From: Escherichia phage BF17
Sequence record: MW822008.1
DNA: 64,000 nucleotides
Reading direction: 5' to 3' (one strand)
Shown here: in pieces, positions 6,432 through 37,456 of the stretch
Numbering within the stretch: position 1 is the first letter of the stretch
Layout: each line of letters begins with the position of its first letter
Program-made: the position numbers and the translations under genes
Notes under the pieces: generated by a model
The model's database searches: none
The model's input: the letters and a program-made list of their open reading frames with translations, nothing else
Told to the model about the DNA's origin: nothing

Positions 6432-6456
6432 GGGAACCTTTTGGTTCCCTTTTTTA
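6432..6456 (+). terminator. intrinsic terminator
   Basis: GGGAACC-TTTT-GGTTCCC hairpin + T6 directly after sheath stop. Confidence 0.75.
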
Positions 6457-6506
6457 TTGTTTAAAATTAAATACGTTATGTTATTAATTCAACGATCAGG
6501 AATAAT

Positions 6507-6653: not shown

Positions 6654-6810
6654 ATGGTCGGTTGGTGTAAACTATACAGATCATAAACAAGAAAAAAAGT
6701 ACTTGTATTGTGTGAATATAGATTGGTTTCCTGTTGATGAGATACTTCAATAAAAGTGTAAGTAATAGATAAATAATATAAAGATGTCATTCCATAACAG
6801 GAGAATATAA

Positions 6811-7497: not shown

Positions 7498-7515
7498 TTT
7501 TTCTTTTAAACGTAA

Positions 7516-7543
7516 GCCTCGAACTAGTTCGGGGCTTTTTTTA
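7516..7543 (+). terminator. intrinsic terminator
   Basis: GCCTCGAAC/GTTCGGGGC hairpin + T7. Confidence 0.6.
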
Positions 7544-7586
7544 TGCTAAATAAAGTATAATACCTTATAAAATAAAAGAGGTTGCT

Positions 7587-8363: not shown

Positions 8364-8374
8364 GGAGATAACCC

Positions 8375-9469: not shown

Positions 9470-10486
<1,017 letters not shown>

Positions 10487-10513
10487 CTTAAACGACCTTA
10501 TGGAGTTATTAAA

Positions 10514-11047
10514 ATGAATAGATTACAACAAATCCTAACGGATAAAAAACCAGTTTTTGAATACCGAGTCAAGTTTGCAGTTGAACCTACCAATGAGCAA
10601 CTAAGTAAAGTATCACAACGCCTAATGGATCGTTATGATGCATTTGATATTGGTGCACTAAAGAAAACTATTTTCATGGAAAGACCACTAGATTTTTATG
10701 AATTAGATTGTGGTGAAATTTGGATGTTTGATTTCAAATGCCACCGTGGTGTTCAATCAAACGTACTAATGTATGAAATTGGCAACCTACTAAGTATGAC
10801 TGAAGCTCTAATCCGTGTACGTAGTAAAGATGAACCACGTCAACAAGAAATGACCGAACTCGAAGATGATATTGACTTTGACGATTACGAACCAGTAATT
10901 GGTGTTGATTTTGGCAAACCAGAAGACAGCCATGATTTAGCTGGTGAAGAACGTGCTGTAACCGCAGTTAAAGATGCGATTGAAGCAGTTAAAAGTGACA
11001 ATAAATACTCTCAATATATGAGTGCTGGTTTTGGTAAAAAGGATTGA
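10514..11047 (+). CDS. hypothetical protein
   Basis: 177-aa ORF with GGAG RBS. Confidence 0.45.
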   Translation: MNRLQQILTDKKPVFEYRVKFAVEPTNEQLSKVSQRLMDRYDAFDIGALKKTIFMERPLDFYELDCGEIWMFDFKCHRGVQSNVLMYEIGNLLSMTEALIRVRSKDEPRQQEMTELEDDIDFDDYEPVIGVDFGKPEDSHDLAGEERAVTAVKDAIEAVKSDNKYSQYMSAGFGKKD

Positions 11048-11050
11048 GAC

Positions 11051-11596
11051 ATGAGTATACTTAATGAAATGTTAGACTATAATGATGAAGAGCTAAATGA
11101 AGCTCGTCCATATAGTCGTTCACAAAGTGCAGTAGATAGTGCAAAAGGAAAAGTAAAAGGCTTTTTCGGTAGTGGTCAAGTAGAACAAGGTGCACAAGAA
11201 GTTGGTGCAGAAGCAAACCGTCTTTGGGCTGAATTTAAACGCTATGTTGGTCGCAAATACGGTAAAGCACAGCCATCAGTACCATATGCTGATGTTGCAC
11301 AATTCTTCAAAGGAAATAACCTTGATATAAAACACCTGGGAAATAACAGTCGTCGTACTTTTACTCCTAAAGATGTTGGTTCTGCTCTATTGGCAGCAGC
11401 ACGTGACTTGATGAATGATTATCGTGATGATGATAAAGGTGAAGAACAACAACGTCCTGCACCACAAGCTCAACCTGACAATGCTCCACAACCAGCACCA
11501 CAGGAACAGCCAAAAGCACAAGGTTCTAGTATCCCTGATGCTCTACAAAAATTAAGTCCAGAGCAGCGTGAACAACTTTTGCGTATGCTTTCTTAA
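11051..11596 (+). CDS. hypothetical protein with P/Q/A-rich low-complexity tail
   Basis: 181-aa ORF; AAGGA RBS; PQAQPDNAPQPAPQEQP segment. Confidence 0.45.
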   Translation: MSILNEMLDYNDEELNEARPYSRSQSAVDSAKGKVKGFFGSGQVEQGAQEVGAEANRLWAEFKRYVGRKYGKAQPSVPYADVAQFFKGNNLDIKHLGNNSRRTFTPKDVGSALLAAARDLMNDYRDDDKGEEQQRPAPQAQPDNAPQPAPQEQPKAQGSSIPDALQKLSPEQREQLLRMLS

Positions 11597-11609
11597 GGAG
11601 AATCAACAC

Positions 11610-13121
11610 ATGGATAATTTTTTCAGTACTGAAACTACCACAGTACCTAATGGATATGTATATACTTCTCACACTGGTGGCAAATATGTATTTCTAGAAG
11701 GTTTCTGGTTTAACGACAATAATATGTTAATGGTAGACCCTAAAAAATACCCATCCATGTACGCAAGTGCTCGACAACAGATTGTTGAGCACAATCTATC
11801 TTCTAGTGAATATAAAATTGGTAAAAAATATATTCTTGAAGGTAAAGAGTGTACATTTCTTGGTGAAAATCGTTTCAATTCTAAAGATGGAATTCTACTA
11901 ACTGAAAGTGAAATTATCACTGAACTAATGGCAGATGACCACCGTGTATATAATGTTTCAAAAGAAACTCTACAAAAAGAATGGAACTCCCTAAAATTCT
12001 ATATCCTTCCACCATATGCTGATGATATTTCTATTCCAGCAGGTATGGAAGTTAGTGGATTTAAATTCATCCCTAAAAATCACCGTTTTGTTGATGCAAA
12101 ATCTGGACGTCCAGTTGACCCAGCAATGACACGTAAACTTTCCGATGAAGGTATGCGTATTGCTCGCCAATTAGCACCAAAAAACAAACTAATTCCAATT
12201 AAATCTACATTAGTACAAGGTAATACTCGTTCAGAATGGAATGGTAAAGAATTTTGTGATAATGATGGTAATGTTGTAATTCCAGAACAAAATGCACATG
12301 TAATCTTTAATGCATATCAGCAATTTGTTAAGGCTAACCCTGGTGATTTTCCTTCACTAACTGGTGATCATGAATCAGGTGAACAACGTTTTGGTTCAGG
12401 TGAAAAGCCAGAACAACCTAAACAACCAGTAAAACAGCCAGTATTCGCAACAAAAGAATCCATTAATGAAGCAGATGAAGAGATTGAAGAAACTGAATCT
12501 GTTGTGGTTCCACATGGTTACCGCATTACTTCAAATAAAGGTAAAACATACATTAAACAAAAAAATGCATGGTTTGATGTAGAAACTAAAAAACAACTAA
12601 ATTCTAGTGCTGCAAAAAGTGTTGAACGTGCTGCTCAACGTGATATAATTCGCCATAATAGTTCTGGTGCAATGAAAATCGGAACTAAAGTAAAATCTAA
12701 GAAAGGCACAGAGTATTCTTATATCGGTGGTAACCGCTTTATCAGTGCAGAAGGTAAATTGATTCCAAAATCAACTGCTGATGACATTCTTGCTCGTTAT
12801 GATGCAGAACGTGCTGATAAGAAAGAAGAAGAACCTGAAGAGAAAGTAGATGCTGAAGTATCAAGTACTGATGTAGTTGAGCCAAAAGCTGAACCTACTA
12901 AAGAACCAGAACCTGTTGCAGAGCCAGAACCTGAAGTTCCTGCTGCTGGGGATGAAGTTCAATCATTAGCTTCACGAATTAAAGAATCACCTTACGCTAA
13001 GAAAATTACAGTACTCTTAACGCGTGGTGATGAGGTTTCTCTAATTGCTGCTGACATTTTACTATCTGGTAAAAAGGATGAAACAGTGCAAATTTTAAAA
13101 TCATTAAATAAGAATGATTGA
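11610..13121 (+). CDS. hypothetical protein with internal tandem duplication
   Basis: ATG at 11610 with AAGGAG RBS (track starts 11568); two copies of a ~110-aa module (VPNGYVYTSHTGGKY.. / VPHGYRITSNKGKTY..; YKIGKKY..GENRF / MKIGTKV..GGNRF). Confidence 0.5.
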   Translation: MDNFFSTETTTVPNGYVYTSHTGGKYVFLEGFWFNDNNMLMVDPKKYPSMYASARQQIVEHNLSSSEYKIGKKYILEGKECTFLGENRFNSKDGILLTESEIITELMADDHRVYNVSKETLQKEWNSLKFYILPPYADDISIPAGMEVSGFKFIPKNHRFVDAKSGRPVDPAMTRKLSDEGMRIARQLAPKNKLIPIKSTLVQGNTRSEWNGKEFCDNDGNVVIPEQNAHVIFNAYQQFVKANPGDFPSLTGDHESGEQRFGSGEKPEQPKQPVKQPVFATKESINEADEEIEETESVVVPHGYRITSNKGKTYIKQKNAWFDVETKKQLNSSAAKSVERAAQRDIIRHNSSGAMKIGTKVKSKKGTEYSYIGGNRFISAEGKLIPKSTADDILARYDAERADKKEEEPEEKVDAEVSSTDVVEPKAEPTKEPEPVAEPEPEVPAAGDEVQSLASRIKESPYAKKITVLLTRGDEVSLIAADILLSGKKDETVQILKSLNKND

Positions 13122-13143
13122 TAACTAAAAGGATTTATTTAAA

Positions 13144-14133
13144 ATGGCTAAAAAAATTAATGAAGCACAAGTTAAAATCGATATCGCAGGTCTAGAATCT
13201 GAAGATCTAGAAACACTATCTCGTATGCTTGCATTAGCTGGTCAAGCAGAGCGTCAAGCTTCTCCTGTTGCTGCTCCAGTTCCTTCTATGGGGTCTATGA
13301 CCCCTTCTCTACCACCAATCGCTCCACTCGACATGGATTCCATTGGTGCTGGTGCTGAAGAAGAAGTTGGTGGTACAATGGATGGTGCGATTGATGCACC
13401 AGTTGAAGACCCATTGGAAGTAGCTGCTGACTCACTATCTGCTGAAGCTGGTGATTTTGGTGGTGATTCTGAAGAAGTAAGTATGGATGCAGAGTTCGAA
13501 GAGCCTGGTGTTGCAGATGAAGAAGAGTTTTCTTTAGATCTTTCCGGTCAACCTCAACTAGAATCAGTTGAAGAAGAGGAAGAAGAAGAAATCATCGAAG
13601 AAGAATTCGATTTCAGTCGTATGCTATCTCTAGCTGGGCTTCAAGACGAACCAGAAGATGAATATTCAGTAGAAGGTAACCCAGATACTGAAGTTAAAGT
13701 TGAAGAAAACACTTTCCTACCAGACCTAACCATCTCTGAAGATGAAGAACAAGGTGACAGTACTGATTTTGGACCTTACAACACTGAAGCTGATGCCGTT
13801 CGTGACGGTCAAGCTAAAACTAATGGTGTAGAAGGTGACCACTTTGTTGTTATTACCAAGGGTAACAAGTTCTACTGGAGACGTGTCGTTGATGAAGATG
13901 TTGACAATCGTCCTGAACCAGAGTACTATGACAATGACGGTAACGAGAACCGTGTTCACAAATTTGAACCTAAGTTTCCAGGTACTGCTCTAGGTGACAA
14001 CCCACTCAATGTTAATGAGAGTGATGAGTCCGTGGAAGGTAACGAAGAACTAGAAGATGAAAGCGATGAAGAAGTCGAAGACATTTTCGAAAGTCTCCAG
14101 AAGAAATATCAACAATTTCTAGGGGACAAATAA
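13144..14133 (+). CDS. highly acidic protein (D/E-rich)
   Basis: 329 aa with long E/D runs (EEEEEEEIIEEEFDF); AAAGGA RBS. Confidence 0.5.
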   Translation: MAKKINEAQVKIDIAGLESEDLETLSRMLALAGQAERQASPVAAPVPSMGSMTPSLPPIAPLDMDSIGAGAEEEVGGTMDGAIDAPVEDPLEVAADSLSAEAGDFGGDSEEVSMDAEFEEPGVADEEEFSLDLSGQPQLESVEEEEEEEIIEEEFDFSRMLSLAGLQDEPEDEYSVEGNPDTEVKVEENTFLPDLTISEDEEQGDSTDFGPYNTEADAVRDGQAKTNGVEGDHFVVITKGNKFYWRRVVDEDVDNRPEPEYYDNDGNENRVHKFEPKFPGTALGDNPLNVNESDESVEGNEELEDESDEEVEDIFESLQKKYQQFLGDK

Positions 14134-22649: not shown

Positions 22650-23429
22650 TTAACGAGTACGCTCAGGAATATCAATACCTTCATATACCCATACAGCCGC
22701 CTGTTGTGCTTTATAAATTGCATCTTCATCAGCATCAGGAACTGCATCAATGTCAGCACATTGCTTATCACACTCTGCAAATAGGGATTCAACCATAGCA
22801 AATGCTTCAGTGTATAGTTGAGTCATTTCAGCAGCAGATAGTTTTACAATTGCGTCATCAAGGAAAATAGAAACACTATCAGCACCTGAAGTTACTTGAG
22901 TGTAATAGTTAAGAAGCATTTGACGACCAGCTAGATCAGTACTATAACGATGACCGTTAAACATATAACCAGCATTAATACGGTCACTACGAGATGATAC
23001 TGTGCGTGCTTTCAGATCAGATTTAACTGATGCAATGTCCATATCAACATAATTATAAGTTTTCAGTACTGTTAACTCTTTATATTCACCTTCTGCTTCT
23101 TCTAAGAATGTGATGACTGGTTGATTACTATCTAGTAGTTTAATATATTCCAAATTCTCATTAATTGCGTTCACGTTACCAACATTCTTATATTCCAACC
23201 ACCAGAAACCCTCTTCTTTACGAACAGCGTTATTAGGTTCAATTTCAGAACCATCTTTACTTGAAATACCATAAAGTGCACGAATATCGCTGTACAAATA
23301 ACGATATGTTTGTTCATCATCTGGAGTTGCTCCAGGGCGTTCTTTTAAACCCTTAACACCAACTGGGTTGGAGATGATGTTACCCAATTCATAATTTTCT
23401 TTAGAACTACCTTTTACATATGTAAACAT
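22650..23429 (-). CDS. hypothetical protein, possible fibre assembly or chaperone role
   Basis: 259-aa ORF between fibre genes; GAGGTAG RBS; function inferred from position only. Confidence 0.4.
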   Translation of the reverse strand: MFTYVKGSSKENYELGNIISNPVGVKGLKERPGATPDDEQTYRYLYSDIRALYGISSKDGSEIEPNNAVRKEEGFWWLEYKNVGNVNAINENLEYIKLLDSNQPVITFLEEAEGEYKELTVLKTYNYVDMDIASVKSDLKARTVSSRSDRINAGYMFNGHRYSTDLAGRQMLLNYYTQVTSGADSVSIFLDDAIVKLSAAEMTQLYTEAFAMVESLFAECDKQCADIDAVPDADEDAIYKAQQAAVWVYEGIDIPERTR

Positions 23430-23495: not shown

Positions 23496-26400
23496 TTAAG
23501 CAGTACGTTGTGCAATGAACAAATCAGTAACTGAACTTACACCATCATAAATTACTTGGTAAATGGTCACGCTACCAGCAGTTTTGTTTAGTTCACCATC
23601 AACAACAGCATAAGTACCATCAGTTGTAAAGTTTCTGTTACCAGTTGTATCTTGTTTAACATAGATGTATACTGATGCAGCTTTACCACCACCAATTAGG
23701 CCAGTAATTGGAGCCAACGTGGTATCTTGGTCTAGAGTGATGAAGTATACGTTACTTGTACCATCTGGAGTCCATGTTCCGGTTGGAGCAATTACTGATG
23801 ATGTAACTTGAGTTGGGATTACATCATACTTTTTGGTAGTTACTGTTGTAGTAGTTAAGTTAGCATTAGTAGTGGTTAGTTCACCAGTTACTGTTACTGC
23901 CTTATCAAACACAGCATTTTCTTTAAATGATGAAGTTGCATTAACGGTTAGAACGTCAGCCGCTGCGTCACCTAATGTTACGTTACCATTCGCAGTTAGT
24001 GCTCCTGTTACTGCTAGTGTTCCACCTACTGTTGCGTTACCAGTAACGGATGCACTTGCAAGTGTAGCCAAACCTGATGTTGTAATTGTAGAAACGGTTG
24101 TTGCACCGAATCCAGCAGTACCAGTTGCAGAGATATTACCACCTACTGTTAGGTTACCAGCAGTGATACCAACAGTACCAGTGATGTTTGCACCACTTGA
24201 CATAGTTACTGCACCACCAAATGAACCAGTAGTAGTAACTTCTAAAGTATTACCTTTAAGCAATCCAGTTGCAGTGATAGAAGTACCAGCAGTAATTGAA
24301 GTGTTAGCAGTAATTGAAGTGCCAGCCGCTACGTTGTTAGTTGCAGTCAAAGACTTAACAGCTACATCGGAATCTGCTTGGTTCAATTGTGCATTTAGTA
24401 CACCAGTAACAGTAAAGTCACCGTTGTTTACAACGTTACCATTAACGATTAGGTTGTTGTTTTGTGAACCGACTTCACCAATTGTTGCAGAACTTGAAAT
24501 AATTGCCGCACCAGCAGTAATATTACCAGCAGAAGATAAAGAATCGGATGCTATTACTGCAAACGGTTCTAGTGTTTGTCCACCAACATCGATATCTGCG
24601 TTAATACCACCTTCAACACGTAGTTTACCAGCAATATAAGTGTCTGGCATAATCTGTACAGTTTCAGGCTGCTCACCTAATGGTGTACCAACTGTTAGAG
24701 TTGCACCAGTTTTAACAGAACCTAGTGTTGTTTGACCAACTACACCTAGTGTACCACCAACGGTTGCGTTGTTAGTTACTGCTAGACCAGTTCCTGAACC
24801 ATTCAAGGTTGCAGATGGAGCAGTTACTGCACCAGAAGTTAGTGTTCCACCAATTGTTGCTAAACCAGTTACACCTAATGTTCCACCAAGGGTAGTATTA
24901 CCTGTCGCATTTAATGTTTCAGATAGAGTTAGTGTTTTAGCAGAGATATCTGCACCAGTTAGATCTAAGCTACCAGGAGTTAGTGTTCCAACTACAGTTA
25001 CATCGTTACCAAATGTCGCAGCACCAGTAACACCAAGAGTAGTACTGAAAGAGCCACTTGTTGCAGATACACCAGAAGTTACGATAGAACCAAGTGATGC
25101 TTGACCAGTTACTCCTAATGTACCACCAATAGTTGCATTATTAGTTACTGCTAGTGCAGTACCAGTACCGCTTAGGGTTGCCGATGGAGCAGTTACTTCA
25201 CCAGTTACACCTAATGTTCCACCTACTGTTGTGTTACCACCAAAGGAAGCTGCACCATCAGAGTGAATAGTTTCAGATACTGACAAACTCTTAGCTGTAA
25301 TGTCAGCAGTTGTTAGGTCTAAACCACCTGCTGGTGTGAATACACCTTCAACAGTTACATCGTTGTCAAATGTAGCTGCACCAGTAACATCCAATGTAGA
25401 ACTAAATGTACCAGTACTACCAGATACAGCACCGGAAACCAATGAACCAACAGTTGTTACACCAGTAATATTCGCAAGACCAGTTACAGTCAATGGACCT
25501 GAAGATAATGAGCCAGTTACACCTAATGTTCCACCAACGGTCGCATTGTTAGTAACACCCAAACTACCAGCATTCACTGTGCCAGATGCAGTAACATCAG
25601 TAGTACTTACACCACCACTTAGTGTGCTTAGGCCAGTTGCAGTGATGGTTGAAGCAGTTGCAAGACTATTAGCAGAAATATCTGCACCAGTTAGGTCAAT
25701 ACCACCTTGTGGAACCAATTCACCTTCAACTGTTAGTTTCTGAACAGTACTATCACCAGATACATTTAAGGATGCAGCACTTAGTGCAGCTACTGTACTT
25801 TGACCAGTTACATTTAAAGTGGTGTTTACTGTAGTGTTGTTTAAAGTTGTATCACCGGATACTAATATAGCGTTGGTATTGATACCACCAGCATCAACTT
25901 GAATACCACCAGTGCTTACAGTTACTTTCTTGCCGATATTTACAATATCAGTTAGGGTAGTTGCACCAGTTACTGAAGCAGTACCTGCGACTGAAAGGTT
26001 TCCAGATACGGATGGGCTACCAGTTACAACACCAGTTGTTAGTACTAGGTTACCACCAACGGTAGTATTTCCAGAACTAGCAAGGGTAATTGCTGAAACA
26101 TTGGAAGAACTTAAATCAATTGAACCATTAACAACTAGGTCACCACCAATTGTAGCACCTTCTGTAGTACTTAGGGATTTAGAACTAATATCGGTAGTAC
26201 TTAGGTCGATAGAACCAGGAGTAACAGTGCCAGATACGGTCAAATCACCAGTAATAGAAGCACTTTTCGCAATGTCAATTGTATCATTAACAGAACTAAT
26301 ATTATTAACATTTAATATACCATTAATGTTTGCATTATTGTCAACACGTAAACCTTCACCAACTCCATTTAGTACAATACTTGTAGCTGTTACTTCAGTA

Positions 26401-29216
26401 GCAGATACTTGTTTTAGTGTACTTGAACCAGTTGTTTCAATAGTATCTGCACGGACAGCACCAATAGTTGCATCAGTAGTAATTAGTTTTGGTAGAGTGC
26501 TAGAATTCACTGTATCAGAAACTGTAATAACACCAGCACTTGTAATTGTCTCTGCACTTGCAAGAGATTTCACAGACACATCAGCAGCACTTAGATCAAC
26601 TGTACCTGCTACCACAAGATCGCCACCAATTGTAGCACCTTCAGTTGTGGTTAGAGACTTAGAACTAATATCAGTAGTACTTAGGTCAATTGCACCAGGG
26701 GTCAATGTCCCAGATACGTCCAAATTACCAGTGATTGTAGTGTTATTGTTAATTGCTACACCATCAGCATTGCTGATTGACGCAGTTTCAACAGATGCAC
26801 CTTTTAATACGCCAGTAGCGGTAATGTTAGTTGCAGAAGTAATAGCACCAGAAGCGTTAACACCAGCTAGAGTTGATGTACCAGTTACATTTAGTGTGGT
26901 AGCATTTGCAGTGGTTGCAGTTACTGTGGTAATATTAGCTTCAGTACTGGAAAGTTTAGGTAGAACACTACTTACTGTACCTTCAGAACTAATAACTGCA
27001 CCAGTACTGGTTAGAGATTTAACAGCAACGTCAGCAGCACTTAGATCAACTGTACCTGCAACAACTAGGTCACCACCAATGATAGCACCTTCAGAAGTTG
27101 TTAGAGACTTAGCATCAATATCAGTAGTACTTAGGTCAATTGAACCAGGGGTAAGATTTCCAGTCACAGATAGATTACCTGCAATTGAAGTGTTGTTTGT
27201 TATTGACACACCAGCAGTGTTGCTAATGATTGCAGTTTCAACAGAAGATGCCTTTAGAGCACCAGTTTCAACGCTACCAGATTTAGAAAGACCAGTTACT
27301 ACAGATGATGCACCAGAAATTTCACCAGTTGCTGTAATAGTAGAGCCAGAAATTGCAGTACCTGCAATTGCACCAGTACTATTGATTGAAGTTGCTGTAA
27401 CACCAGCAAGAGTTGATTCACCAGCAACAGATAGAGTTGTTGTAACATCAACTTTGTTTGGAGCAATATCAAGACCGTCAACGTCAGCGATTGCAGTTAC
27501 ACCAGTTGAAGTTCCAGTTACTACCAAGTCTTTAACAGTGATTGTTTGACCAGTTACGGTTACATCACCACTGAAAGTGCCAGCTACAGCAGATAAATCG
27601 CCACTAAAGGTTGCGTTATCACCGCTAACATCCCCAGTAAAGGTTGCACTTGTACCGGATACTCTATCACTGAAGATACCTTTAGAACCACTAACATCAC
27701 CACTGAAAGTACCAGAGGCAGCAGATAATGCACCAGTAACAGTTGCAGCACCACCAACTTGTAGAGATGAACCTACAGTTGTTTGACCAACTGATTCAAG
27801 AGTTTGACCTTTGATTGCTTCAGCAGCAACTACTGATTTAGGAGTTAGATCTTGTCCACTCACATCAACAGTTAGGCCAGTTACAGTACCTGTAAATTCA
27901 ACATCATTAAGAATTGCTTTACCACCAACTTGTAGTTGTGGAGTTGCAGGGTTTTGTGTTGCGTTACCAGTAATTGTTAGATAATCTAATTTGTTTAGAC
28001 CATTACCAGTAATACCATAGGTAGATAGTGCAGCAGAACCGAAGGTTGCAGTTTGTAGAACGTTCAACTTAGCAGGAGACATTAGTTCAGATTGAACTTC
28101 GTTTGCTAACAAGACTGTTGGACGTGCACTAGGTGCAGTATATGCAAAACCTAGCTTAACGTTAGCATCAGCGGTATTTTGACCCAAATTGATTGCTTTG
28201 AATGTTGCAGTACTTGCTAGACCAGTGATGTTTGCACCCAATGTAACTGCACCAGTTAGTGCTGAAGCACCGGATACTGATAATGTTGTTGCTTGGATAT
28301 CATCTAAATCAAAACTACCACCAATAGTACCAGATACGTTGATGTTGTTAAAGTTTGCAGTACCAGAACTTTCGATATTAGGAATAGTTGCTACACCAGT
28401 TACTTCTAAATCAACAACTTTAGTTTTACCTTTAGTTACTTCAAGTAAAGGAGTGGTTGGTGATTGAATTGCGTTACCAGAAATAGTTACATAATCTAAT
28501 TTGTTTAAACCATTACCTGTAATACCGTAAGTTGAAAGTGAAGAATCACCAAATGTTGCAGTTTGTAGAACATTCAACTTAGCTGGTGACATTAGTTCGG
28601 ATTGAACTTCGTTCTGTAGAAGAACGGTTGGTCGTTGTCCTGGAACGGTGTAACCAAAGTTTAGTCTATATGCTTGACCTGCTTCATTAGGCCCGATACG
28701 AATATCACGGAAGTTTGCAGTACTTGCAAGACCAGTGATATTTGCACCCAATGTGACTGAACCAGTTAGTGCTGAAGCACCAGACACATTAAGTGTTGTA
28801 GCATTAATATCAGAAAGATTAAAAGTACCACCAAGTGTACCAGAAATGTTTACATCTTTAAAAGTTGCTGTGCCAGTTGAAGTAATATCAGTTGATTCAA
28901 CAGAATCAAATGATCCTGAATTAGCTTCTAAATTATCAAATTTTGCAGTTGTTCCGACAGCAGCAGTAATGTTTCCTGCAAATGTCGCAGCACCTGAAAC
29001 ATCAGCACCACCGGATAAGGTTGCCTTACCAGCAACATCCAATGCACCTGTGACATTCACAGAACCAGCGGTAATTGCAGTGAATACTGCGTTAGCAAAA
29101 GACACTTCCCCATTAACCGTTAGGTCATTACTGAATACTGCATTACCTTTGACCAAAAGATCCTTACCTACCGTGGAATTACCAGATACATCAAGATCCG
29201 TTTTAATCGAGTACAT
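23496..29216 (-). CDS. giant repeat-containing tail fibre protein (1906 aa)
   Basis: G/T/S/A/V-rich beta-repeat composition; paralogous to 29366-34282 (shared MYSIKTDLD start and TPDGT..VYIYV C-terminus); internal tandem repeats. Confidence 0.7.
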   Translation of the reverse strand: MYSIKTDLDVSGNSTVGKDLLVKGNAVFSNDLTVNGEVSFANAVFTAITAGSVNVTGALDVAGKATLSGGADVSGAATFAGNITAAVGTTAKFDNLEANSGSFDSVESTDITSTGTATFKDVNISGTLGGTFNLSDINATTLNVSGASALTGSVTLGANITGLASTANFRDIRIGPNEAGQAYRLNFGYTVPGQRPTVLLQNEVQSELMSPAKLNVLQTATFGDSSLSTYGITGNGLNKLDYVTISGNAIQSPTTPLLEVTKGKTKVVDLEVTGVATIPNIESSGTANFNNINVSGTIGGSFDLDDIQATTLSVSGASALTGAVTLGANITGLASTATFKAINLGQNTADANVKLGFAYTAPSARPTVLLANEVQSELMSPAKLNVLQTATFGSAALSTYGITGNGLNKLDYLTITGNATQNPATPQLQVGGKAILNDVEFTGTVTGLTVDVSGQDLTPKSVVAAEAIKGQTLESVGQTTVGSSLQVGGAATVTGALSAASGTFSGDVSGSKGIFSDRVSGTSATFTGDVSGDNATFSGDLSAVAGTFSGDVTVTGQTITVKDLVVTGTSTGVTAIADVDGLDIAPNKVDVTTTLSVAGESTLAGVTATSINSTGAIAGTAISGSTITATGEISGASSVVTGLSKSGSVETGALKASSVETAIISNTAGVSITNNTSIAGNLSVTGNLTPGSIDLSTTDIDAKSLTTSEGAIIGGDLVVAGTVDLSAADVAVKSLTSTGAVISSEGTVSSVLPKLSSTEANITTVTATTANATTLNVTGTSTLAGVNASGAITSATNITATGVLKGASVETASISNADGVAINNNTTITGNLDVSGTLTPGAIDLSTTDISSKSLTTTEGATIGGDLVVAGTVDLSAADVSVKSLASAETITSAGVITVSDTVNSSTLPKLITTDATIGAVRADTIETTGSSTLKQVSATEVTATSIVLNGVGEGLRVDNNANINGILNVNNISSVNDTIDIAKSASITGDLTVSGTVTPGSIDLSTTDISSKSLSTTEGATIGGDLVVNGSIDLSSSNVSAITLASSGNTTVGGNLVLTTGVVTGSPSVSGNLSVAGTASVTGATTLTDIVNIGKKVTVSTGGIQVDAGGINTNAILVSGDTTLNNTTVNTTLNVTGQSTVAALSAASLNVSGDSTVQKLTVEGELVPQGGIDLTGADISANSLATASTITATGLSTLSGGVSTTDVTASGTVNAGSLGVTNNATVGGTLGVTGSLSSGPLTVTGLANITGVTTVGSLVSGAVSGSTGTFSSTLDVTGAATFDNDVTVEGVFTPAGGLDLTTADITAKSLSVSETIHSDGAASFGGNTTVGGTLGVTGEVTAPSATLSGTGTALAVTNNATIGGTLGVTGQASLGSIVTSGVSATSGSFSTTLGVTGAATFGNDVTVVGTLTPGSLDLTGADISAKTLTLSETLNATGNTTLGGTLGVTGLATIGGTLTSGAVTAPSATLNGSGTGLAVTNNATVGGTLGVVGQTTLGSVKTGATLTVGTPLGEQPETVQIMPDTYIAGKLRVEGGINADIDVGGQTLEPFAVIASDSLSSAGNITAGAAIISSSATIGEVGSQNNNLIVNGNVVNNGDFTVTGVLNAQLNQADSDVAVKSLTATNNVAAGTSITANTSITAGTSITATGLLKGNTLEVTTTGSFGGAVTMSSGANITGTVGITAGNLTVGGNISATGTAGFGATTVSTITTSGLATLASASVTGNATVGGTLAVTGALTANGNVTLGDAAADVLTVNATSSFKENAVFDKAVTVTGELTTTNANLTTTTVTTKKYDVIPTQVTSSVIAPTGTWTPDGTSNVYFITLDQDTTLAPITGLIGGGKAASVYIYVKQDTTGNRNFTTDGTYAVVDGELNKTAGSVTIYQVIYDGVSSVTDLFIAQRTA
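24266..24490. repeat. near-identical ~210-225-bp segment shared with 30093-30300, with 18-bp unit copy-number difference
   Basis: Direct read: CCAGTTGCAGTGATAGAAGTACCAGCAGTAATTGAAGT ... CACCAATTGTTGCAG in both genes; this copy has an extra 18-bp unit (GTSITA x3 vs x2). Confidence 0.8.
26100..27260. repeat. three tandem copies of a ~450-bp coding repeat within the 1906-aa fibre gene
   Basis: Recurring block ...CTTAGGTCAATTGAACCAGGGGT... ; protein repeat TPGxIDLSTTDISSKSL.TTEGATIGGDLVVAGTVDLSAADV x3. Confidence 0.7.
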
Positions 29217-29316
29217 AGAGTCCCCTCCTATAACGATGAACTATATATTCATAACCCATCTTTTGTTAATATACTTATATTTAGTTTAATTCACAAAAAC
29301 ACTATTATCTAATACA

Positions 29317-29345
29317 AAAGAAAAAGCCAACTAAAAAAGTTGGCT
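29317..29345 (-). terminator. intrinsic terminator between the two fibre genes
   Basis: AGCCAAC/GTTGGCT hairpin followed on minus strand by TTTTCTTTT. Confidence 0.6.
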
Positions 29346-29365
29346 TTAATTATTAATTTAAAATG

Positions 29366-32300
29366 TTATACACGTTGTGCAACGAAGGTATCAAACACAG
29401 TACTGAAACCATCATAGATTACTTGGATAATACTTGTTTGACCAACTACAGCACTTACTGTACCAGAAACTACAGAGTATGCACCACCGAAGGTGAAAGT
29501 AGTATCAGCAACAGATGGAGTTACATAGATATACACTGAACATGCTTGACCACTACCAATTAGACCCGCGATGGAATCCATTGTAACACTTTGGTCAAGA
29601 GTTAAGCGATATACGTTAGTAGTACCATCTGGTGTCCAAGTGCCACCTACAGCAGCAGTAGAAGCAGTAACACTAGCAGGGATAACAGAATATTTCTTAG
29701 TTACCATGTTGTTTGTAGTGAAGTTTGCAGTGGTGGTGTTAATAGAACCAGTCACTGTTAGGTTCTTATCAAATGTTGCGTTCTCTTTAAATGTAGATGT
29801 TGCATTTACAGTTAAAGTATCAGCAGCAGCATCACCAATCACAGTGTTACCATTTGCAGTTAATGTACCACCTACAGTTAGATCACCAGTTACAGATGCA
29901 CTTGCCATTGTAACAGCACCAGTTGTAGTAATGGTTGTTGCAGTTAGTGCTTGGAAGCTTGATTCTTCTGTTGCAATTACTGAACCATCAACATGCATGT
30001 CACCACCTGAAACATCAGCACCACCTAGTAGGCTTACTTTACCACCGAACGAACCAGTAGTCGTGATAACAAGAGAGTTACCATTCAATGCACCAGTTGC
30101 AGTGATAGAAGTACCAGCAGTAATTGAAGTACCAGCCGCTACGTTGTTAGTTGCAGTCAAAGACTTAACAGCTACATCGGAATCTGCTTGGTTCAATTGT
30201 GCATTTAGTACCCCAGTAACGGTGAAGTCACCATTAGTTACTACGTTACCATTAACAGTTAGGTTGTTGTTTTGTGAACCAACATCACCAATTGTTGCAG
30301 CTTTAGAAACGATGGTTGCACCAGAAGTAATGTTACCAACAGCAGATAGTGTTGCAGCAGCTTCAATTGCATATGGTTCTAGTGTTTGACCACTTACGTC
30401 GATTTCAGCGTTAATACCACCGATTACACGCAATTTACCAGCAATATAAGTATCTGGAATGATCTGTACAGTTTCAGGTTGTTCACCAACTGGAGTACCA
30501 ACAGTTAGGGTTGTGCCAGTTTTCACTGCACCAGTAGCTGTTAGTGAAGATACAGTAGTAGCACCAGTAACATCTAGAGTGCCAGTTACACCCAAATTAC
30601 CACCAACTGATGCGTTTGCAGTAGAAGTTAAACTTCCAACAGTTGCTAGACCAGATGCAGTCACAGTAGAAGTACTAACACCACCACTTAGAGTACTTAG
30701 GCCAGTTGCATTGATAGTTGTTGCAGTAGTTAGACTATTAGCAGTAATGTCTGCACCGCTTAGGTCAAGACCACCTTGTGGGATCAATTCACCTTGGACA
30801 GTTAGTTTCTGAACAGTACTGTCACCAGAAACTGTTAGTGATGTCGCAGATACACCTGCTAGAGTAGAAGCACCAGTTACACCTAAAGTTCCAGTAATGG
30901 AAGTTCCTGCTAGAGTAGAAGCACCAGAAACGTTAATTGTGTTAGTATTGATACCACCATCAACTACCTGAATACCACCAGTACTCACTGTTACTTTCTT
31001 ACCGATATTAACAATATCAGTTAGGTTAACAGCACCAGTTACACCAAGAGTTCCACCGATTGTTGTATTACCAGAGATAGCTGGGCTACCAGTCACAACA
31101 CCAGTTGTTAGTACTAGATCAGTTCCAACAGTAGTAGAACCAGTACTTGCTAGACTTGCAGCTACAAGGTTAGTTGCACTTAAGTCGAATGCACCATCTA
31201 CAGTTAGGTCACCAGCAATGTGTGCGTTACCTAGTGAATCAAGAGATTTAACGGTTACATCAGTATTGCTTAGGTCGATTGAACCAGCAGTTAGTGTACC
31301 AGATACAGCTAAATCACCAGTGATTGCAGTATTTTTTGCAATATTAAGAGAAGCAGCAGTTGTTGTTAAAGAACCAACAGTTGCAATGCCACCAACAGAT
31401 AATGCACCACCAACGTTTGCATCATTATCAACTTGAAGACCAAGGCCACTACCAGAAAATTCAGCACTAGTAGCAGTTACTTGAGTAGCTGATACACTTT
31501 GTAGTACACTGTTGCCAGTTGCATTAATAGTACCTGCATTTACTGTAAAGAGTGTTGCATCAGTTGAAGTAATTTTAGGTAACGAACTAGTATTGGTTGA
31601 ATCGGTAACGGTAATAACACCAGCACTTGTAATTGTCTCTGCACTTGCAAGAGATTTCACAGACACATCAGCAGCACTTAGGTCAAAAGTACCATCAACT
31701 ACTAAGTTTCCACCAACATTAACATCAGCAGTAGTAGTTAGTGAGTTTGCAGTAATATCAACAGTTGTTAGATCAAGACCACCTTCAGGTTTGAATACAC
31801 CAGTGACAGTTAGATCTTTTGCCGCGACAACATTACTTGCTAGATTTAGTGTACCAGCACCAGCAGCTTCAGCTTGTAAAGTTGGAACTGTTACAGAAGT
31901 TGTGATTGTTGCAGTACCAGAAGACAAACGCGAACCAGATACTACACCAGTACTAGTTAGTGTTCCTACTTTCGCTGCACCAGTAGTAGTTAGTGTTCCA
32001 CCTGAAACGTCACCAGTTGCGACAACAGAAGATGCATTAATTACACCAAATGTACTTGGGTTAGTTGCACTAACTGATTTTGTTACTACATCAGCAGCAG
32101 ACAAATCAATAGCACCAGTTACTGCAAGAGAACCACCCACAGTTACGTTACCAGTAGTTGTTAAAGAAGCAGCACTTACATCAGTAGTGCTTAAATCTAT
32201 ACTACTCGGAGTTAGTGTTCCAGTAATAGTTACGTTATTAGCAAAAGTAGTGTCACCAGTAATACTTGGAACAGTTAGTGAAGCCATAGAACCAGCACCA

Positions 32301-34282
32301 GTTACTGCAAGAGAACCACCAGATAGTGCACCAGCCGCAGTTACTGTATTACCAGATACAGACGCACCAGTAACATCACCAGTACTGGTTACTGAACTAG
32401 CAGTTAGGCCAGCTAAAGTAGTGTCCCCAGCAACAGATAGTGTTGTTGTAACATCAACTTTATTTGGGGCGATATCAAGACCATCAACATCAGCTTGGGC
32501 AGTTACACCAGTAGTTGTACCAGTTACTACTAAATCACGTACAGTTACAGTTTGACCAGTAACGCTAACATCACCACTGAAAGTACCTTTAGCAGCACTT
32601 ACGTCACCAGTGAAGGTTGCAGCAGTACCAGTTAGTGCACCAACAACATTAGCTGTTCCACCAACTTGTAGGTTAGTTCCTACGGTGGTTTGACCAACAG
32701 ATTCAAGGGTTTGTCCTTTGATTGCTTCAGCAGCAACAACAGATTTAGGAGTTAGGTCTTGACCACTTACATCAACTGTTAGGCCAGTTACAGTACCAGT
32801 GAATTCAACATCATTTAGTACTGATTTACCAGCTACTTGTAGTTGTGGTGTTGCTGGACTTTGTGTACCATTACCAGTAATAGATAGATAATCTAGTTTG
32901 TTTAGACCGTTACCTGTGATACCATAGGTTGCAAGAGATGCATCACCAAAGGTAGCAGTTTTTTGTACATTTAGTACTGCTGGAGATACTAGTTCAGACT
33001 GAATTTCATTTTGTAGAATTACAGTTGGACGAGCACCAGGGGCAGAATAAGCAAAACCATACTTAACGTTAGCATCGGCTGCGTTTTGTCCTAAACTTAC
33101 TGCTTTAAAATTAGCAGTACTATTAGCACCGGAAATATCAGCACCCAAAGTTACACCACCAACAAGGCTAGTTAATCCAGAAACAGTTAGAGTGTTTGCT
33201 TCAATATCATCAAGACTGAAAGTACCGCCGAGTGTACCAGATACGTTGATGTTATTAAAATTAGCAGTACCAGTACTTTCAATGTTAGGAATAGTTGCAG
33301 TTCCTGTTACTTCGAAATCATGAACTTTAGTTTTACCTGAAGTTACTTGTAATAGTGGAGTTGTTGGATCTTGAACAGAGTTACCAGATACTGTTAGGTA
33401 ATCTAGTTTGTTTAGACCATTACCAGTAATACCAAAAGTGGATAATGACGAATCACCAAAAGATGCAGTTTTCAATACACTTAGGGTAGCTGGAGACATC
33501 AATTCTGATTGGATTTCGTTCTGTAGAATTACAGTTGGACGAAGACTTGGAGCAGAATAGTTAAAGCTCAAACGGTAGTTAGTGTTTGCAGCATTGGAAC
33601 CAATTTTAATATCACGGAAGTTTGCACTACTATTCACACCAGTAATGTTGGAACCTAATGTAACACCACCTTGTAGACTGGTCAAACCAGAAACAGTTAG
33701 AGTTGTTGCATTAACATCAGATAGACTAAATGTTCCACCTAGTGTACCGGAAATATTCACATCTTTAAAGTTTGCAGTTCCAGTTGATGTAATATCAGTA
33801 GTTGCAGTGTTTGTGAATGTTGCATCAGTTGCAGTTATTGTGTCAAATGCTGCGGTAGTGCCAGTTTCAGCAGTAATGTTACCTTTAAATGAAGAAGTTC
33901 CAAGAACATCCATTGATGCCACTTGGGTATCTTTTAGTACAGCAGTGCCAGCGGTTTGTGTTAGGTTACCTGCCATTGATACTGGGCTTTGGAATTGTGC
34001 ATTAGAATTAATCGTTGCAGTATCAGAACCAACAGGTAAATTACCAATTACGGAATTACCATGAACTTCAATTCCACCATTCAATGATGCTTTACCAGCA
34101 ACATCTAGTGTAGATGAAATGTCTACAGTTTCTGCTTCAATTGCAGTGAATACAGCGTCAGCAAAAGTTACAGTTCCATTAACTGTTAGATTTTTATTGA
34201 ATACTGCATCGCCTTTCACAAGAAGATCTTTAGCAACCGTTGCACCACCAGTTATATCGAGATCTGTTTTAATCGAGTACAT
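29366..34282 (-). CDS. giant repeat-containing tail fibre protein (1638 aa), paralogue
   Basis: Same composition and shared N- and C-terminal modules as 23496-29216; GGAGGG RBS. Confidence 0.7.
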   Translation of the reverse strand: MYSIKTDLDITGGATVAKDLLVKGDAVFNKNLTVNGTVTFADAVFTAIEAETVDISSTLDVAGKASLNGGIEVHGNSVIGNLPVGSDTATINSNAQFQSPVSMAGNLTQTAGTAVLKDTQVASMDVLGTSSFKGNITAETGTTAAFDTITATDATFTNTATTDITSTGTANFKDVNISGTLGGTFSLSDVNATTLTVSGLTSLQGGVTLGSNITGVNSSANFRDIKIGSNAANTNYRLSFNYSAPSLRPTVILQNEIQSELMSPATLSVLKTASFGDSSLSTFGITGNGLNKLDYLTVSGNSVQDPTTPLLQVTSGKTKVHDFEVTGTATIPNIESTGTANFNNINVSGTLGGTFSLDDIEANTLTVSGLTSLVGGVTLGADISGANSTANFKAVSLGQNAADANVKYGFAYSAPGARPTVILQNEIQSELVSPAVLNVQKTATFGDASLATYGITGNGLNKLDYLSITGNGTQSPATPQLQVAGKSVLNDVEFTGTVTGLTVDVSGQDLTPKSVVAAEAIKGQTLESVGQTTVGTNLQVGGTANVVGALTGTAATFTGDVSAAKGTFSGDVSVTGQTVTVRDLVVTGTTTGVTAQADVDGLDIAPNKVDVTTTLSVAGDTTLAGLTASSVTSTGDVTGASVSGNTVTAAGALSGGSLAVTGAGSMASLTVPSITGDTTFANNVTITGTLTPSSIDLSTTDVSAASLTTTGNVTVGGSLAVTGAIDLSAADVVTKSVSATNPSTFGVINASSVVATGDVSGGTLTTTGAAKVGTLTSTGVVSGSRLSSGTATITTSVTVPTLQAEAAGAGTLNLASNVVAAKDLTVTGVFKPEGGLDLTTVDITANSLTTTADVNVGGNLVVDGTFDLSAADVSVKSLASAETITSAGVITVTDSTNTSSLPKITSTDATLFTVNAGTINATGNSVLQSVSATQVTATSAEFSGSGLGLQVDNDANVGGALSVGGIATVGSLTTTAASLNIAKNTAITGDLAVSGTLTAGSIDLSNTDVTVKSLDSLGNAHIAGDLTVDGAFDLSATNLVAASLASTGSTTVGTDLVLTTGVVTGSPAISGNTTIGGTLGVTGAVNLTDIVNIGKKVTVSTGGIQVVDGGINTNTINVSGASTLAGTSITGTLGVTGASTLAGVSATSLTVSGDSTVQKLTVQGELIPQGGLDLSGADITANSLTTATTINATGLSTLSGGVSTSTVTASGLATVGSLTSTANASVGGNLGVTGTLDVTGATTVSSLTATGAVKTGTTLTVGTPVGEQPETVQIIPDTYIAGKLRVIGGINAEIDVSGQTLEPYAIEAAATLSAVGNITSGATIVSKAATIGDVGSQNNNLTVNGNVVTNGDFTVTGVLNAQLNQADSDVAVKSLTATNNVAAGTSITAGTSITATGALNGNSLVITTTGSFGGKVSLLGGADVSGGDMHVDGSVIATEESSFQALTATTITTTGAVTMASASVTGDLTVGGTLTANGNTVIGDAAADTLTVNATSTFKENATFDKNLTVTGSINTTTANFTTNNMVTKKYSVIPASVTASTAAVGGTWTPDGTTNVYRLTLDQSVTMDSIAGLIGSGQACSVYIYVTPSVADTTFTFGGAYSVVSGTVSAVVGQTSIIQVIYDGFSTVFDTFVAQRV

Positions 34283-34358
34283 TTAGTTCCCTCCAAATAG
34301 GCAAAAAGCATAAAATACATTTGACCTTGTTAATATACATATATTTAGTTATTGATAT

Positions 34359-35314: not shown

Positions 35315-37456
35315 TTAAGATAGGGTGATATATGTTATTGGTTGAGCAGCTTTCAATAATGCCCCTGCTGCGGTAGCAGTAACAATCGGATCGGCAATAT
35401 CGATACGATACGCATTATTAACAACATAAACTGCTCTAGTGATATATGTTTTTAAATCTTCGCCGTTTTCCCCTGCTCCTGTGATTAGGATTTCGGTTCC
35501 AGCAGCTTTAGCATATTGATTTTCACCCCATGATACACCCAATGCTTCGATATAAGTTTGTCCTGCAACTGTTTGTCTAATTGTGTCATATCGACCAAAG
35601 AAAGAACCACCTACTGTAACAATAAATTTTCCACCTGATTGTTTATGGATAATTGTTCCTTCTGGGAAATATCTCCCACCAGGAAAAACATCATAAGGCA
35701 CGTAATACTGTTCAACTACAGGTATTACTACAGGTCCACGATGACCCGTTCCATCAATTGCAGTGGTTACTTTAAAGTTATTAGATGATTGGTCAATACG
35801 GTCAACATACATTCTTGAGAAACTATATTTTGATATGTTACAATCATCTTGAACAACACAATTAGTCCAGTTGGTATATGTATATTTAGAGCGAGTATAT
35901 AAGCCCCCTCCTTCACCTTCAGTTGCAAGGTGTTGTCCAATAACATCAAGTTCTTTAGTACTGATATTATTAAACTTGGAAGATGACGGCAATCCACGCC
36001 ATTGAATTCTACTACATGTAATATTAGAAAGTTCAGTAGTATTTAGCCAATTATCAGAGCCTGATGTATGCACAATAATAGACGACTCAGGAATGTGGAG
36101 ATTACATAATTTAAAGTTACGTGGAGGACCAGCAAATTTACCAGATGTTACACCCCAGTTAATAGAAACCATACGGTTAGTTACTGATGGATCATTTAAT
36201 AGATGTCCAGATAGGCCATCAATAATAAAATCAACAGAACCATAAGTAATTACACCAGCGGTTGTCAAACCAGTACCAATTGATACCAATGTCGATGGAT
36301 AAACTTCATTATTAAGAATTTTAAAGTCTTTACCCAATTCAACGTGAATACATTGACGAACATTGTATAAGCGGTTATTTTTTATAACGAATTTTTTTAC
36401 ATATTGTGAATCATCTGCATTCACATCATAAGGACCAGAACCAGCAACGCCGATACCAATACCCCAGTTTGAAAGAGGAATTGGTGCATCTGTACCATCT
36501 ACGTTTTCAATCAAGTTACCTTCTATTACAAAACCGTCTGGGTAATGTGAGTTGACTACGTTCAATTCAATTGCATCACCATATATATCATGGATGTGGT
36601 TGTATGAATAACGCCCAACTGTCATTTTCTCACCAGTGCCTTGCTGAAGAACACCGTACTTACATTGTGTCATTTCATTAAAGCAGAAGTCGATAGTACC
36701 TGATTCAGTCATACCTTGCATTAGAAATGCAGCAGTACTTGTAATATTAATAAATTTATTAAAATAAAATTTACCATTACCACCAAAGAATTTTAAATAA
36801 CATCCTGTTAATGTTGCTTGTTGGATTGTACTATTCAGTACTGATACCATTGTTCCACCGTTACCAGTGATTGTTCCACCAAACCATTGAATATCATTCA
36901 AATAAACAGCAGTTCTGATACGATAATTACCACCAGCTTGAATTTGGATTTGGTGTTCTTTTGCATAAACTGCACATGCGTTAACCGCCGCCGTGTCATC
37001 AGTGATGCCATCACCTTTTGCACCAAACTCTTCTGGAGTTATGTAAAACTGTGCCTGTTGGAGTGTTCCTCCAGTAATAAGTCCGATATAATCAGCACCG
37101 TTAACACTGGAAAGGACATTTTTATTAATGTATAATGATTTTACCCAAACATCATTTGTTTTTGCAAAGATATCAACAATACCCTCAGAATCAACTTGAA
37201 AATAAGTGTTGTTATTTTTACCAATGTCATTTGTTGGTGGAAGCACGCCAAATAAAGCATTTGGGTTATCTTCAAGATACCTAACGTTTACTGCGGAATC
37301 ATCGTCATTAGGAGTTCCCACCTTAACAGGTAGGAACGTTTCGCCTAAAAAGTCTTTGATTGCGACAGAATCGTTTACAAAATTAATAGAAGCACCACGT
37401 TTACCCAACTTAAATGTTGGCATCATGGTTCCTTCTAAATTGGAAAAAACTGCCAT
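35315..37456 (-). CDS. tailspike with pectate-lyase-like beta-helix (putative polysaccharide depolymerase)
   Basis: Motif EEFGAKGDGITDDTAAVNACA typical of the pectate-lyase-superfamily N-cap; N-terminal MAVFSNLEGTM module; 14-bp gap to next gene. Confidence 0.7.
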   Translation of the reverse strand: MAVFSNLEGTMMPTFKLGKRGASINFVNDSVAIKDFLGETFLPVKVGTPNDDDSAVNVRYLEDNPNALFGVLPPTNDIGKNNNTYFQVDSEGIVDIFAKTNDVWVKSLYINKNVLSSVNGADYIGLITGGTLQQAQFYITPEEFGAKGDGITDDTAAVNACAVYAKEHQIQIQAGGNYRIRTAVYLNDIQWFGGTITGNGGTMVSVLNSTIQQATLTGCYLKFFGGNGKFYFNKFINITSTAAFLMQGMTESGTIDFCFNEMTQCKYGVLQQGTGEKMTVGRYSYNHIHDIYGDAIELNVVNSHYPDGFVIEGNLIENVDGTDAPIPLSNWGIGIGVAGSGPYDVNADDSQYVKKFVIKNNRLYNVRQCIHVELGKDFKILNNEVYPSTLVSIGTGLTTAGVITYGSVDFIIDGLSGHLLNDPSVTNRMVSINWGVTSGKFAGPPRNFKLCNLHIPESSIIVHTSGSDNWLNTTELSNITCSRIQWRGLPSSSKFNNISTKELDVIGQHLATEGEGGGLYTRSKYTYTNWTNCVVQDDCNISKYSFSRMYVDRIDQSSNNFKVTTAIDGTGHRGPVVIPVVEQYYVPYDVFPGGRYFPEGTIIHKQSGGKFIVTVGGSFFGRYDTIRQTVAGQTYIEALGVSWGENQYAKAAGTEILITGAGENGEDLKTYITRAVYVVNNAYRIDIADPIVTATAAGALLKAAQPITYITLS

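Follow-up and report, generated by a model that had tools for sequence, protein, structure and literature searches.

The stretch of Escherichia phage BF17 analysed here (sequence record MW822008.1; 64,000 nucleotides (nt), referred to as the window) carries two giant tail fibre genes, A and B, which lie one behind the other. According to our analysis, with a probability of about 85%, they are tandem, independently promoted fibre paralogs of the Rak2/121Q-like type that exchange segments by homologous recombination. The fibres themselves are probably giant, about 100 nm in length, and trimeric beta-helical. Both open reading frames (ORFs) were found exactly where a preliminary description, made from the sequence alone, had placed genes of 1906 and 1638 amino acids (aa).

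23496-29216, minus strand: fibre gene A, ORF of 1906 aa
29366-34282, minus strand: fibre gene B, ORF of 1638 aa, in tandem with A and with a divergent C-terminal tip

The closest relatives are Asteriusvirus (121Q/Rak2-like) jumbo coliphages of roughly 350-390 kb. Over the fibre region (10.8 kb), the window shares 99.0% identity with Escherichia phage Turkey3, followed by WPEC3, WPEC5, and CMSTMSU with 97-98%. Twelve related genomes were used for comparison. The tandem pair occurs in Turkey3, WPEC3, WPEC5, CMSTMSU, fEgEco12, EC.P1, Ecwhy_1, and vB_Ec-M-J, while 121Q, phAPEC6, JP4, and CBB carry a single fibre gene between the same flanks. The two-gene state is documented by seven assemblies that are independent of each other.

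Collinearity and repeated modules of A and B

In a MAFFT alignment, A and B are collinear over 1578 aligned codons, with 66% amino-acid identity, 70% nucleotide identity, and a synonymous divergence (dS) of 0.80. The alignment shows collinear, near-identical blocks, so that the resemblance goes beyond mere composition. The preliminary description spoke of shared start and end modules. The sharing is real, but it spans the whole length of the genes, and the extreme C-terminus (last 49 aa) is the least similar part, with 45% amino-acid identity. Two larger inserts interrupt the alignment: 53 aa are found in B only (B aa 71-123) and 236 aa in A only (A aa 1260-1495).

Both genes are rich in internal repeats. 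These were detected by BLAST with tiled queries; self-BLAST of the whole proteins reports none of them.

27855-28889, minus strand: two tandem 170-aa (510-nt) N-proximal modules in A, aa 110-279 and 280-454, repeat families D3/D6
32762-33796, minus strand: two tandem 170-aa N-proximal modules in B, about aa 163-332 and 333-507
25857-27266, minus strand: three tandem units of 150-160 aa in A, aa ~651-1120, repeat families D4/D5, spacing 480/450 nt
24708-25778, minus strand: three tandem units of ~119 aa in A, aa 1147-1503, repeat family D18

A duplicated N-proximal module of ~150 aa had been noted for each gene before. The duplication is present in both, while the size has to be corrected to 170 aa (510 nt), with 62-74% amino-acid identity (68-74% between the two modules of A). 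The modules fall into two distinguishable types, each of which is kept between A and B; their duplication is thus older than that of the gene. The three tandem repeats of ~150 aa previously seen in A are likewise real, with units of 150-160 aa and 58-74% amino-acid identity. The ~119-aa units had been missed. Two of the three make up the 236-aa insert found in A only. B carries the mid-protein repeats in weak form only.

On a smaller scale, a hexapeptide micro-repeat (TSITAN/TSITAG/TSITAT, 18 nt) occurs in three copies in A (24267-24320, aa 1633-1650) and in two copies in B (30095-30130). Two more indels of 6 aa separate the genes at A aa ~1681-1686 and 1734-1739.

Exchange of segments between the two genes

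The alignment of A and B contains three tracts of high identity, two of which are candidates for gene conversion.

27780-27908, minus strand: high-identity tract 1 in A, aa 437-479; partner in B 32687-32815
26523-26594, minus strand: candidate conversion tract 2 in A, aa 875-898, dS 0.10; partner in B 31610-31681
24264-24491, minus strand: candidate conversion tract 3 in A, aa 1576-1651, with the 18-nt TSITAx micro-repeat indel, dS 0.21
30092-30301, minus strand: candidate conversion tract 3 in B, aa 1328-1397, partner of 24264-24491

Tracts 2 and 3 correspond to two near-identical blocks of the preliminary description, and both were recovered. Between 24266-24490 and 30093-30300 (tract 3), 208 nt align with 94.2% identity if the 18-nt indel is allowed for, and perfect runs extend over 80 nt (24322-24401) and 38 nt (24265-24302). 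Between 26521-26600 and 31606-31685 (tract 2), 76 of 78 positions are identical, including a perfect run of 71 nt (26524-26594). Tract 1 (128 nt) had not been described. It is 91.4% identical in the window, with a nonsynonymous divergence (dN) of 0 and a dS of 0.48, and 94.5-97% identical in Turkey3, WPEC3, WPEC5, fEgEco12, EC.P1, and Ecwhy_1.

When the match/mismatch vector was shuffled 5000 times, the longest run had a mean of 21 nt and a maximum of 43 nt, compared with the observed 80 and 71 nt. A codon shuffle conditioned on amino-acid identity assigned P<2e-4 and P=6e-4 to the observed runs of 26 and 23 identical codons, respectively. The dS values of tracts 2 and 3 contrast with 0.67-1.08 in the other segments and lie 4-8 times below background. 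Such low values argue for gene conversion rather than for protein constraint. Along this line, the proteins are 100% identical over 40 aa (A aa 441-480), and yet the codons of this stretch show background divergence in the window; protein constraint alone is therefore insufficient to produce near-identical blocks. The identity tracts are products of recombination at least as much as substrates for it.

Comparison of isolates that are otherwise 97-100% identical reveals patches of the respective other type. At A aa 1640-1721, B of the window and B of Turkey3 are only 65% identical to A. In the same stretch, B of WPEC5, fEgEco12, EC.P1, and Ecwhy_1 is 93-95.5% identical to A and 63-65% identical to B of the window. 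The A-type patch in these four copies (A aa ~1651-1720) measures ~250 nt and lies between segments that are 99-100% B-type, with both boundaries visible; a map of informative sites gives ~95 consecutive A-type sites with sharp edges on each side. B of WPEC3 shows a shorter, patchy A-type tract. Conversely, A of Ecwhy_1 and A of vB_Ec-M-J carry a B-type patch of 18 sites. With A-type patches within B and a B-type patch within A, the exchange is bidirectional.

The distal ends of the two proteins behave differently from these exchanged segments.

23499-23846, minus strand: distal C-terminal domain of A (aa 1791-1906), putative receptor-binding tip, aligns to the C-terminus of the fibre of Pectobacterium phage phiTE
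about 29369-29710, minus strand: distal C-terminal domain of B, equivalent of A aa 1791-1906

In the C-terminal blocks (A aa 1740-1905), the two-gene isolates agree within each type to 98.6-100%, whereas A and B share 58-67% nucleotide identity there, with a dN of 0.41 over aa 1791-1906. The distal domains stay distinct in all two-gene isolates. This pattern suggests that selection keeps two distinct tips, presumably with two receptor specificities.

A striking arrangement is found in Escherichia virus TH47, which has a single gene of 1652 aa with an intact reading frame at this locus. The gene is 97-100% identical to B over aa 1 to ~1370, and 96-100% identical to A over its last ~270 aa. The switch falls between the 18-nt TSITAx indel and A codon 1651, in a 30-nt stretch of A/B identity inside tract 3.

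24267-24296, minus strand: TH47 crossover interval and left edge of the A-type patches in B, placed by codon-by-codon informative sites; partner in B 30095-30124

By its sequence, the TH47 gene has the form expected of unequal crossing-over between the paralogs. TH47 was also considered as the ancestral single-gene state. This was rejected, since its two halves match the B and A of today at 96-100% identity, whereas B and A themselves differ by a dS of ~0.8. The gene therefore derives from a two-gene genome, or from the mis-assembly of one. The latter, a collapse of the paralogs at their shared block without any real deletion, is the less probable origin but deserves serious consideration. The record is marked UNVERIFIED; its reads (MiSeq, 2x250, 74x coverage) were put together by the de novo assembler of Geneious, which tolerates mismatches, and the junction falls in the block of highest A/B identity. 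However, the crossover interval offers only ~30 nt of identity beside an 18-nt indel, which is far below the read length, the record holds no second copy of the missing segments (the locus is present in one place only), and the frame is intact over 1652 aa.

The internal modules vary in number as well. The single genes of JP4 (3001-9390) and 121Q (8001-13526) are 97-98% identical except that JP4 exceeds 121Q by exactly 170 aa and 112 aa. The extra segments are a third N-proximal 170-aa module and one more unit of the ~119-aa type. Judged from this pair of sequences, fibre length changes with repeat copy number.

The preliminary description had proposed to look for shuffled cassettes in related genomes, and A/B patches, a chimera, and differences in repeat units were found. 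Its proposal that the identical tracts serve as substrates for homologous recombination gains support from the polymorphic patches, the TH47 crossover within tract 3, and the low dS. Domain swapping between receptor-binding proteins was borne out as far as the exchange of segments is concerned; a true swap of the tip appears in TH47 alone. At the level of sequence patterns, the comparison of isolates demonstrates gene conversion in both directions as well as gain and loss of modules. No further A/B recombinants were detected in scans of IMG/VR and metagenomes.

Being collinear and built of repeated modules, A and B remain open to homologous recombination, which could take place within one genome or between co-infecting relatives. 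Gene conversion, in the form of short non-reciprocal exchanges of ~70-420 nt, makes shaft segments more alike, in either direction. If the two copies cross over unequally, the DNA between them can be lost and the shaft of B joined to the tip of A, as seen in TH47, while the same process between internal repeats adds or removes whole modules of 170 aa and ~115 aa and thereby alters the length of the fibre. Selection would keep both C-terminal domains distinct. As the tip of B differs from that of A, the virion probably displays two fibre specificities.

Near-identical blocks could in principle arise without any recombination if purifying selection acted on the protein itself or on some nucleotide element within the gene (internal promoter, RNA structure). 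Tract 1, which combines a dN of 0 with an intermediate dS, would fit such an explanation, as would tract 2, which is relatively conserved in 121Q (83-88%, compared with 60-69% in its flanks). We nevertheless regard it as highly improbable, given the almost identical synonymous sites of tracts 2 and 3, the background synonymous divergence of the protein-identical 40-aa stretch, and a B segment whose identity to A amounts to 65% in two isolates but to 93-95% in four others, although these are otherwise 99% identical. Cassettes acquired from the fibre genes of other phages (inter-genome mosaicism) are an unlikely, though not far-fetched, source of the tracts and patches. The imperfect identity of the patches to the resident A is in accordance with such an origin, and so are the foreign N-terminal and middle part of A in vB_Ec-M-J and the relations between A, B, and 121Q, which shift by segment. 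On the other hand, every patch donor is clearly of A or B type of the same clade, the closest being A/B alleles of sister isolates, and the patch boundaries coincide with the A/B identity tracts. Moreover, the two views overlap, as an exchange of A with B between co-infecting genomes is a recombination of paralogs, too.

Programmed variation of fibres has general precedents, which are all that speaks for it here: the Gin and Cin inversions of phages Mu and P1, and the diversity-generating retroelement (DGR) of Bordetella phage BPP-1. For the present pair, an invertible segment or a DGR was considered and rejected, and we attach practically no weight to it. A and B are complete and in direct orientation, each with its own start codon, ribosome-binding site, and upstream motif, and their divergence is spread over the full length instead of being confined to a C-terminal variable repeat. 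No inverted repeats longer than ~30 nt or of good quality were found in 22-36 kb, and none of the 18 neighbouring ORFs scanned encodes a recombinase or reverse transcriptase.

Several points weigh against the reading of A and B as giant paralogous fibres that recombine. The A-type patches in B reach 92-95% identity to the resident A and not 100%. Hence, either the exchanges do not date from the very recent past, or they drew on the A allele of a co-infecting relative. The relationships between A, B, and 121Q differ from segment to segment, so that one recent duplication followed by divergence is too simple a history. Recombination as such is deduced from patterns in the sequences, and the deletion in TH47 goes back to one record with the assembly caveat given above, so that the chimera may be a repeat collapse. 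The trimeric beta-helix architecture and the binding of receptors are putative, and the AlphaFold2 models of two domains were unusable. In the long tail fibre of phiTE, residues 14-171 are the part that was modelled experimentally, and the region homologous to A and B lies outside it (PMC11972413).

Copy number, expression, and origin

Each fibre gene is preceded by a GGAGG ribosome-binding site and, 44-46 nt upstream of its ATG, by a motif of 24 nt.

29263-29286, minus strand: 24-nt promoter- or operator-like motif upstream of A (AACTAAATATAAGTATATTAACAA); two occurrences in the window, none expected by chance
34327-34350, minus strand: 24-nt motif upstream of B, 23/24 identical to the copy of A
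29323-29347, minus strand: terminator-like hairpin followed by a T-run, between the stop codon of B and the motif upstream of A

The consensus of the motif is AACTAAATATA(A/T)GTATATTAACAA, and it contains the inverted repeat AATATA-NN-TATATT. In 121Q, JP4, and phAPEC6, the motif is kept at 21/24 positions upstream of the single gene, while conservation does not extend to the spacer before the ATG. The motif probably acts as a promoter or operator. Together with the terminator-like hairpin between the genes, the presence of a motif in front of each suggests that A and B are expressed separately. Since the motif precedes both copies, the copied unit spanned the motif to the stop codon.

With respect to origin, the two genes resemble the single gene in different parts. 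The last 268 aa of A are 90% identical to 121Q gp571, and it is the C-terminal third of A that resembles an ortholog of the single 121Q/phAPEC6 gene. The tip of B is 45-66% identical to A or 121Q, and the B blocks aligned to A aa 1740-1905 have 54-69% nucleotide identity to either. The N-terminal architecture of B, including the 53-aa segment, matches 121Q. With an overall dS of 0.80, the divergence of A and B is old. The B tip owes its difference either to fast divergence or to acquisition from a more distant allele. Within one sub-lineage of Asteriusvirus, an ancestral single gene with its 24-nt motif would have given rise to the pair, through either a tandem duplication or the insertion of a divergent allele beside the resident one. 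A would have retained the ancestral distal tip, while B would bear another tip.

Further variation at the locus was observed in single records. In vB_Ec-M-J, A consists of a foreign N-terminal and middle part (52-81% nucleotide identity) joined to a C-terminal part of 93-99% identity. B of the same phage (locus 7429-12349) has a deletion of 14 nt (ACTGGTTCTACTAC) near gene nt 3138-3151, which splits it into ORFs of 1049 and 582 aa. This is either a natural pseudogene, implying that B is dispensable, or a sequencing error. The metagenome contig OEQX01000033.1 (58 kb) ends within a fibre gene (1-3328) whose last 332 aa are 88% identical to the C-terminus of A; it possibly represents another Asteriusvirus variant. 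In the CMSTMSU record, the fibre pair is split into ~12 small coding sequences labelled 'flagellar hook-length control protein FliK'. This looks like a frameshift-ridden draft sequence with misleading annotation.

By its gene content, the window represents a tail and baseplate morphogenesis block. In addition to the features below, it encodes a gp15-like sheath stabiliser.

22650-23429: DUF4376 structural protein
35315-37456: colanidase tailspike
46714-56715, minus strand: 3333-aa virion protein, end-to-end match to phrog_10938 'virion structural protein'
56766-60227: baseplate wedge
61267-63930: baseplate hub/lysozyme

The fibre locus lies in the order thymidylate synthase, 654-aa structural protein, DUF4376 structural protein, fibre, 299-aa structural protein, and colanidase tailspike, which is the same in 121Q, phAPEC6, JP4, and fEgEco12. 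CBB shares the order from thymidylate synthase to the structural gene after the fibre, and no colanidase is annotated in this stretch of CBB. Further paralogs of A were not found by blastp against all other large ORFs of the window. An apparent counterpart of the 3333-aa ORF is gp245 of phAPEC6 (382 kDa, detected by mass spectrometry), the pairing being by size alone. Opposite the fibre genes, and entirely within their limits, the plus strand contains long ORFs, the largest of 545 aa (23833-24639, 25912-27549, 29571-30389, and 31512-32555). We take these for by-products of a repetitive coding sequence rich in T/G/S/A/V and not for genes.

Fibre family, virion placement, and comparison with known systems

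A and B match phrog_4549 'tail fiber' with E=5.3e-203 and E=2.4e-182, respectively, each in multiple stretches. Several GenBank records already annotate these genes as tail fibres. By tblastn, full-length relatives were identified in 31 phage records across Rak2-like genera, and the 170-aa module also in rV5-like phages of ~145 kb. Pfam and NCBIfam gave no match for A or B, even for sub-domains at E<=10. A phmmer search of all PDB sequences (E<=1) returned a single relative, the phiTE tail fibre (9CUY/9MJN chain g, E=1.4e-29), which is annotated as 'putative tail fiber protein' and has 793 aa. The GenBank name 'long tail fiber proximal subunit' implies a likeness to T4 gp34. It is not supported, as no match to gp34 appeared in the Pfam, NCBIfam, and PDB searches; to our knowledge, gp34 fragments are present among the PDB sequences searched.

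Fragments 99-100% identical to A have been deposited as Escherichia coli proteins on contigs of 2-8 kb, and a 74%-identical one under 'Actinomadura adrarensis'. Such fragments under bacterial names are probably phage contamination or carry-over in assemblies.

From its length and sequence character, we infer that chain g is the 'long tail fibre' of PMC11972413, a trimer on the baseplate wedge with a long predicted beta-helix. Single orthologs at the same locus as A and B, gp256 of phAPEC6 (180 kDa) and CBB_226 of CBB (1553 aa), were detected in virions by mass spectrometry (PMC7247149, PMC5259590). Homology to these orthologs suggests that A and B are virion tail fibres, and a role in receptor binding is likewise suggested by homology. 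AlphaFold2 monomer models did not refine this picture. The first 170-aa module (8-sequence alignment) reached a predicted local distance difference test (pLDDT) score of 38, too poor for fold searches. The C-terminal 217 aa (5-sequence alignment) reached 53.5, with strands of 3-4 residues and a period of ~6 at unusable confidence. The alignments were shallow, as word-indexed protein searches returned 3 and 6 relatives, mostly same-clade fragments in E. coli assemblies.

Concerning their placement, A and B could sit on the virion as baseplate fibres or as tail 'hairs'. T4 gp34 measures ~70 nm for 1289 aa. For the phiTE fibre, a length of 512 A was predicted for 793 aa (PMC11972413). Scaling by the phiTE ratio gives ~105-125 nm for A and B, with ~90 nm as the lower end if the gp34 ratio is included; this is a rough argument. 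The CBB paper reports hairs of 119 +/- 10 nm and baseplate fibres of 28.6 nm, and states that no gene could be assigned to the hairs. That A and B form the 'hairy' whiskers (about 100-120 nm) on the tail sheath of jumbo phages of the phAPEC6/fEgEco12/CBB type is a tentative idea that we consider rather doubtful. If it were true, the duplication would allow a sub-lineage to mount two types of hair, e.g., at different annular positions, and gene conversion together with gain and loss of modules would tune their length and specificity.

Jumbo coliphages of this group are being isolated with a view to therapy, and an elaborate set of fibres and tailspikes determines which hosts they infect. Taken together, exchange between A and B, collapse into a chimera, and gain or loss of modules account for much of the difference in fibre genes among isolates that are otherwise nearly identical. 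It also follows that the fibre locus can be misrepresented in short-read assemblies. Natural junctions for the engineering of chimeric fibres are offered by the 30-nt TSITAx region and the borders of the 170-aa modules. The papers on fEgEco12, phAPEC6, CBB, and JP4 and general literature searches yielded no description of this duplication or of its recombination.

Among known systems, the single-copy 'long tail fiber proximal subunit' genes of the Rak2-like phages (121Q gp571, phAPEC6 gp256, JP4 CDS0665, CBB_226, and that of GAP32) are closest to A and B, with which they share the locus, the N-terminus, the 170-aa modules, the repetitive shaft, and the C-terminal domain. The two-gene isolates differ from them in having two tandem copies with different tips. 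The phiTE fibre has one 170-aa module, the VDVxGxDLxPxSV shaft junction, and the C-terminal domain in common with A and B. In contrast to these, it is 2-2.4 times shorter, has another N-terminal attachment region, and is encoded by a single copy; the arrays of 150-160-aa and 119-aa repeats seen in A are absent from it. 'Tail fiber protein 2' of the rV5-like phages (Vequintavirinae) is grouped with the phiTE fibre as a similar system.

Fibre genes of the T-even phages, P2, Mu, P1, and lambda are well-known mosaics, in which conserved islands act as crossover points and the distal receptor-binding parts are exchanged. Here, the partners are side-by-side paralogs in one genome, and conversion tracts as well as a deletion chimera can be read directly in near-identical natural isolates. 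Ectopic gene conversion between tandem paralogs is characterised by short tracts of low dS with sharp edges, by bidirectional transfer, by polymorphism between strains, and by chimeric single genes that arise through unequal crossing-over. A and B show all of these traits and differ in the setting, which is a structural gene of a lytic jumbo phage. Fibre mosaicism, conversion of paralogs, and unequal crossing-over are textbook processes, and the fibre pair of this Asteriusvirus sub-lineage is a clear worked example of them rather than a new principle.

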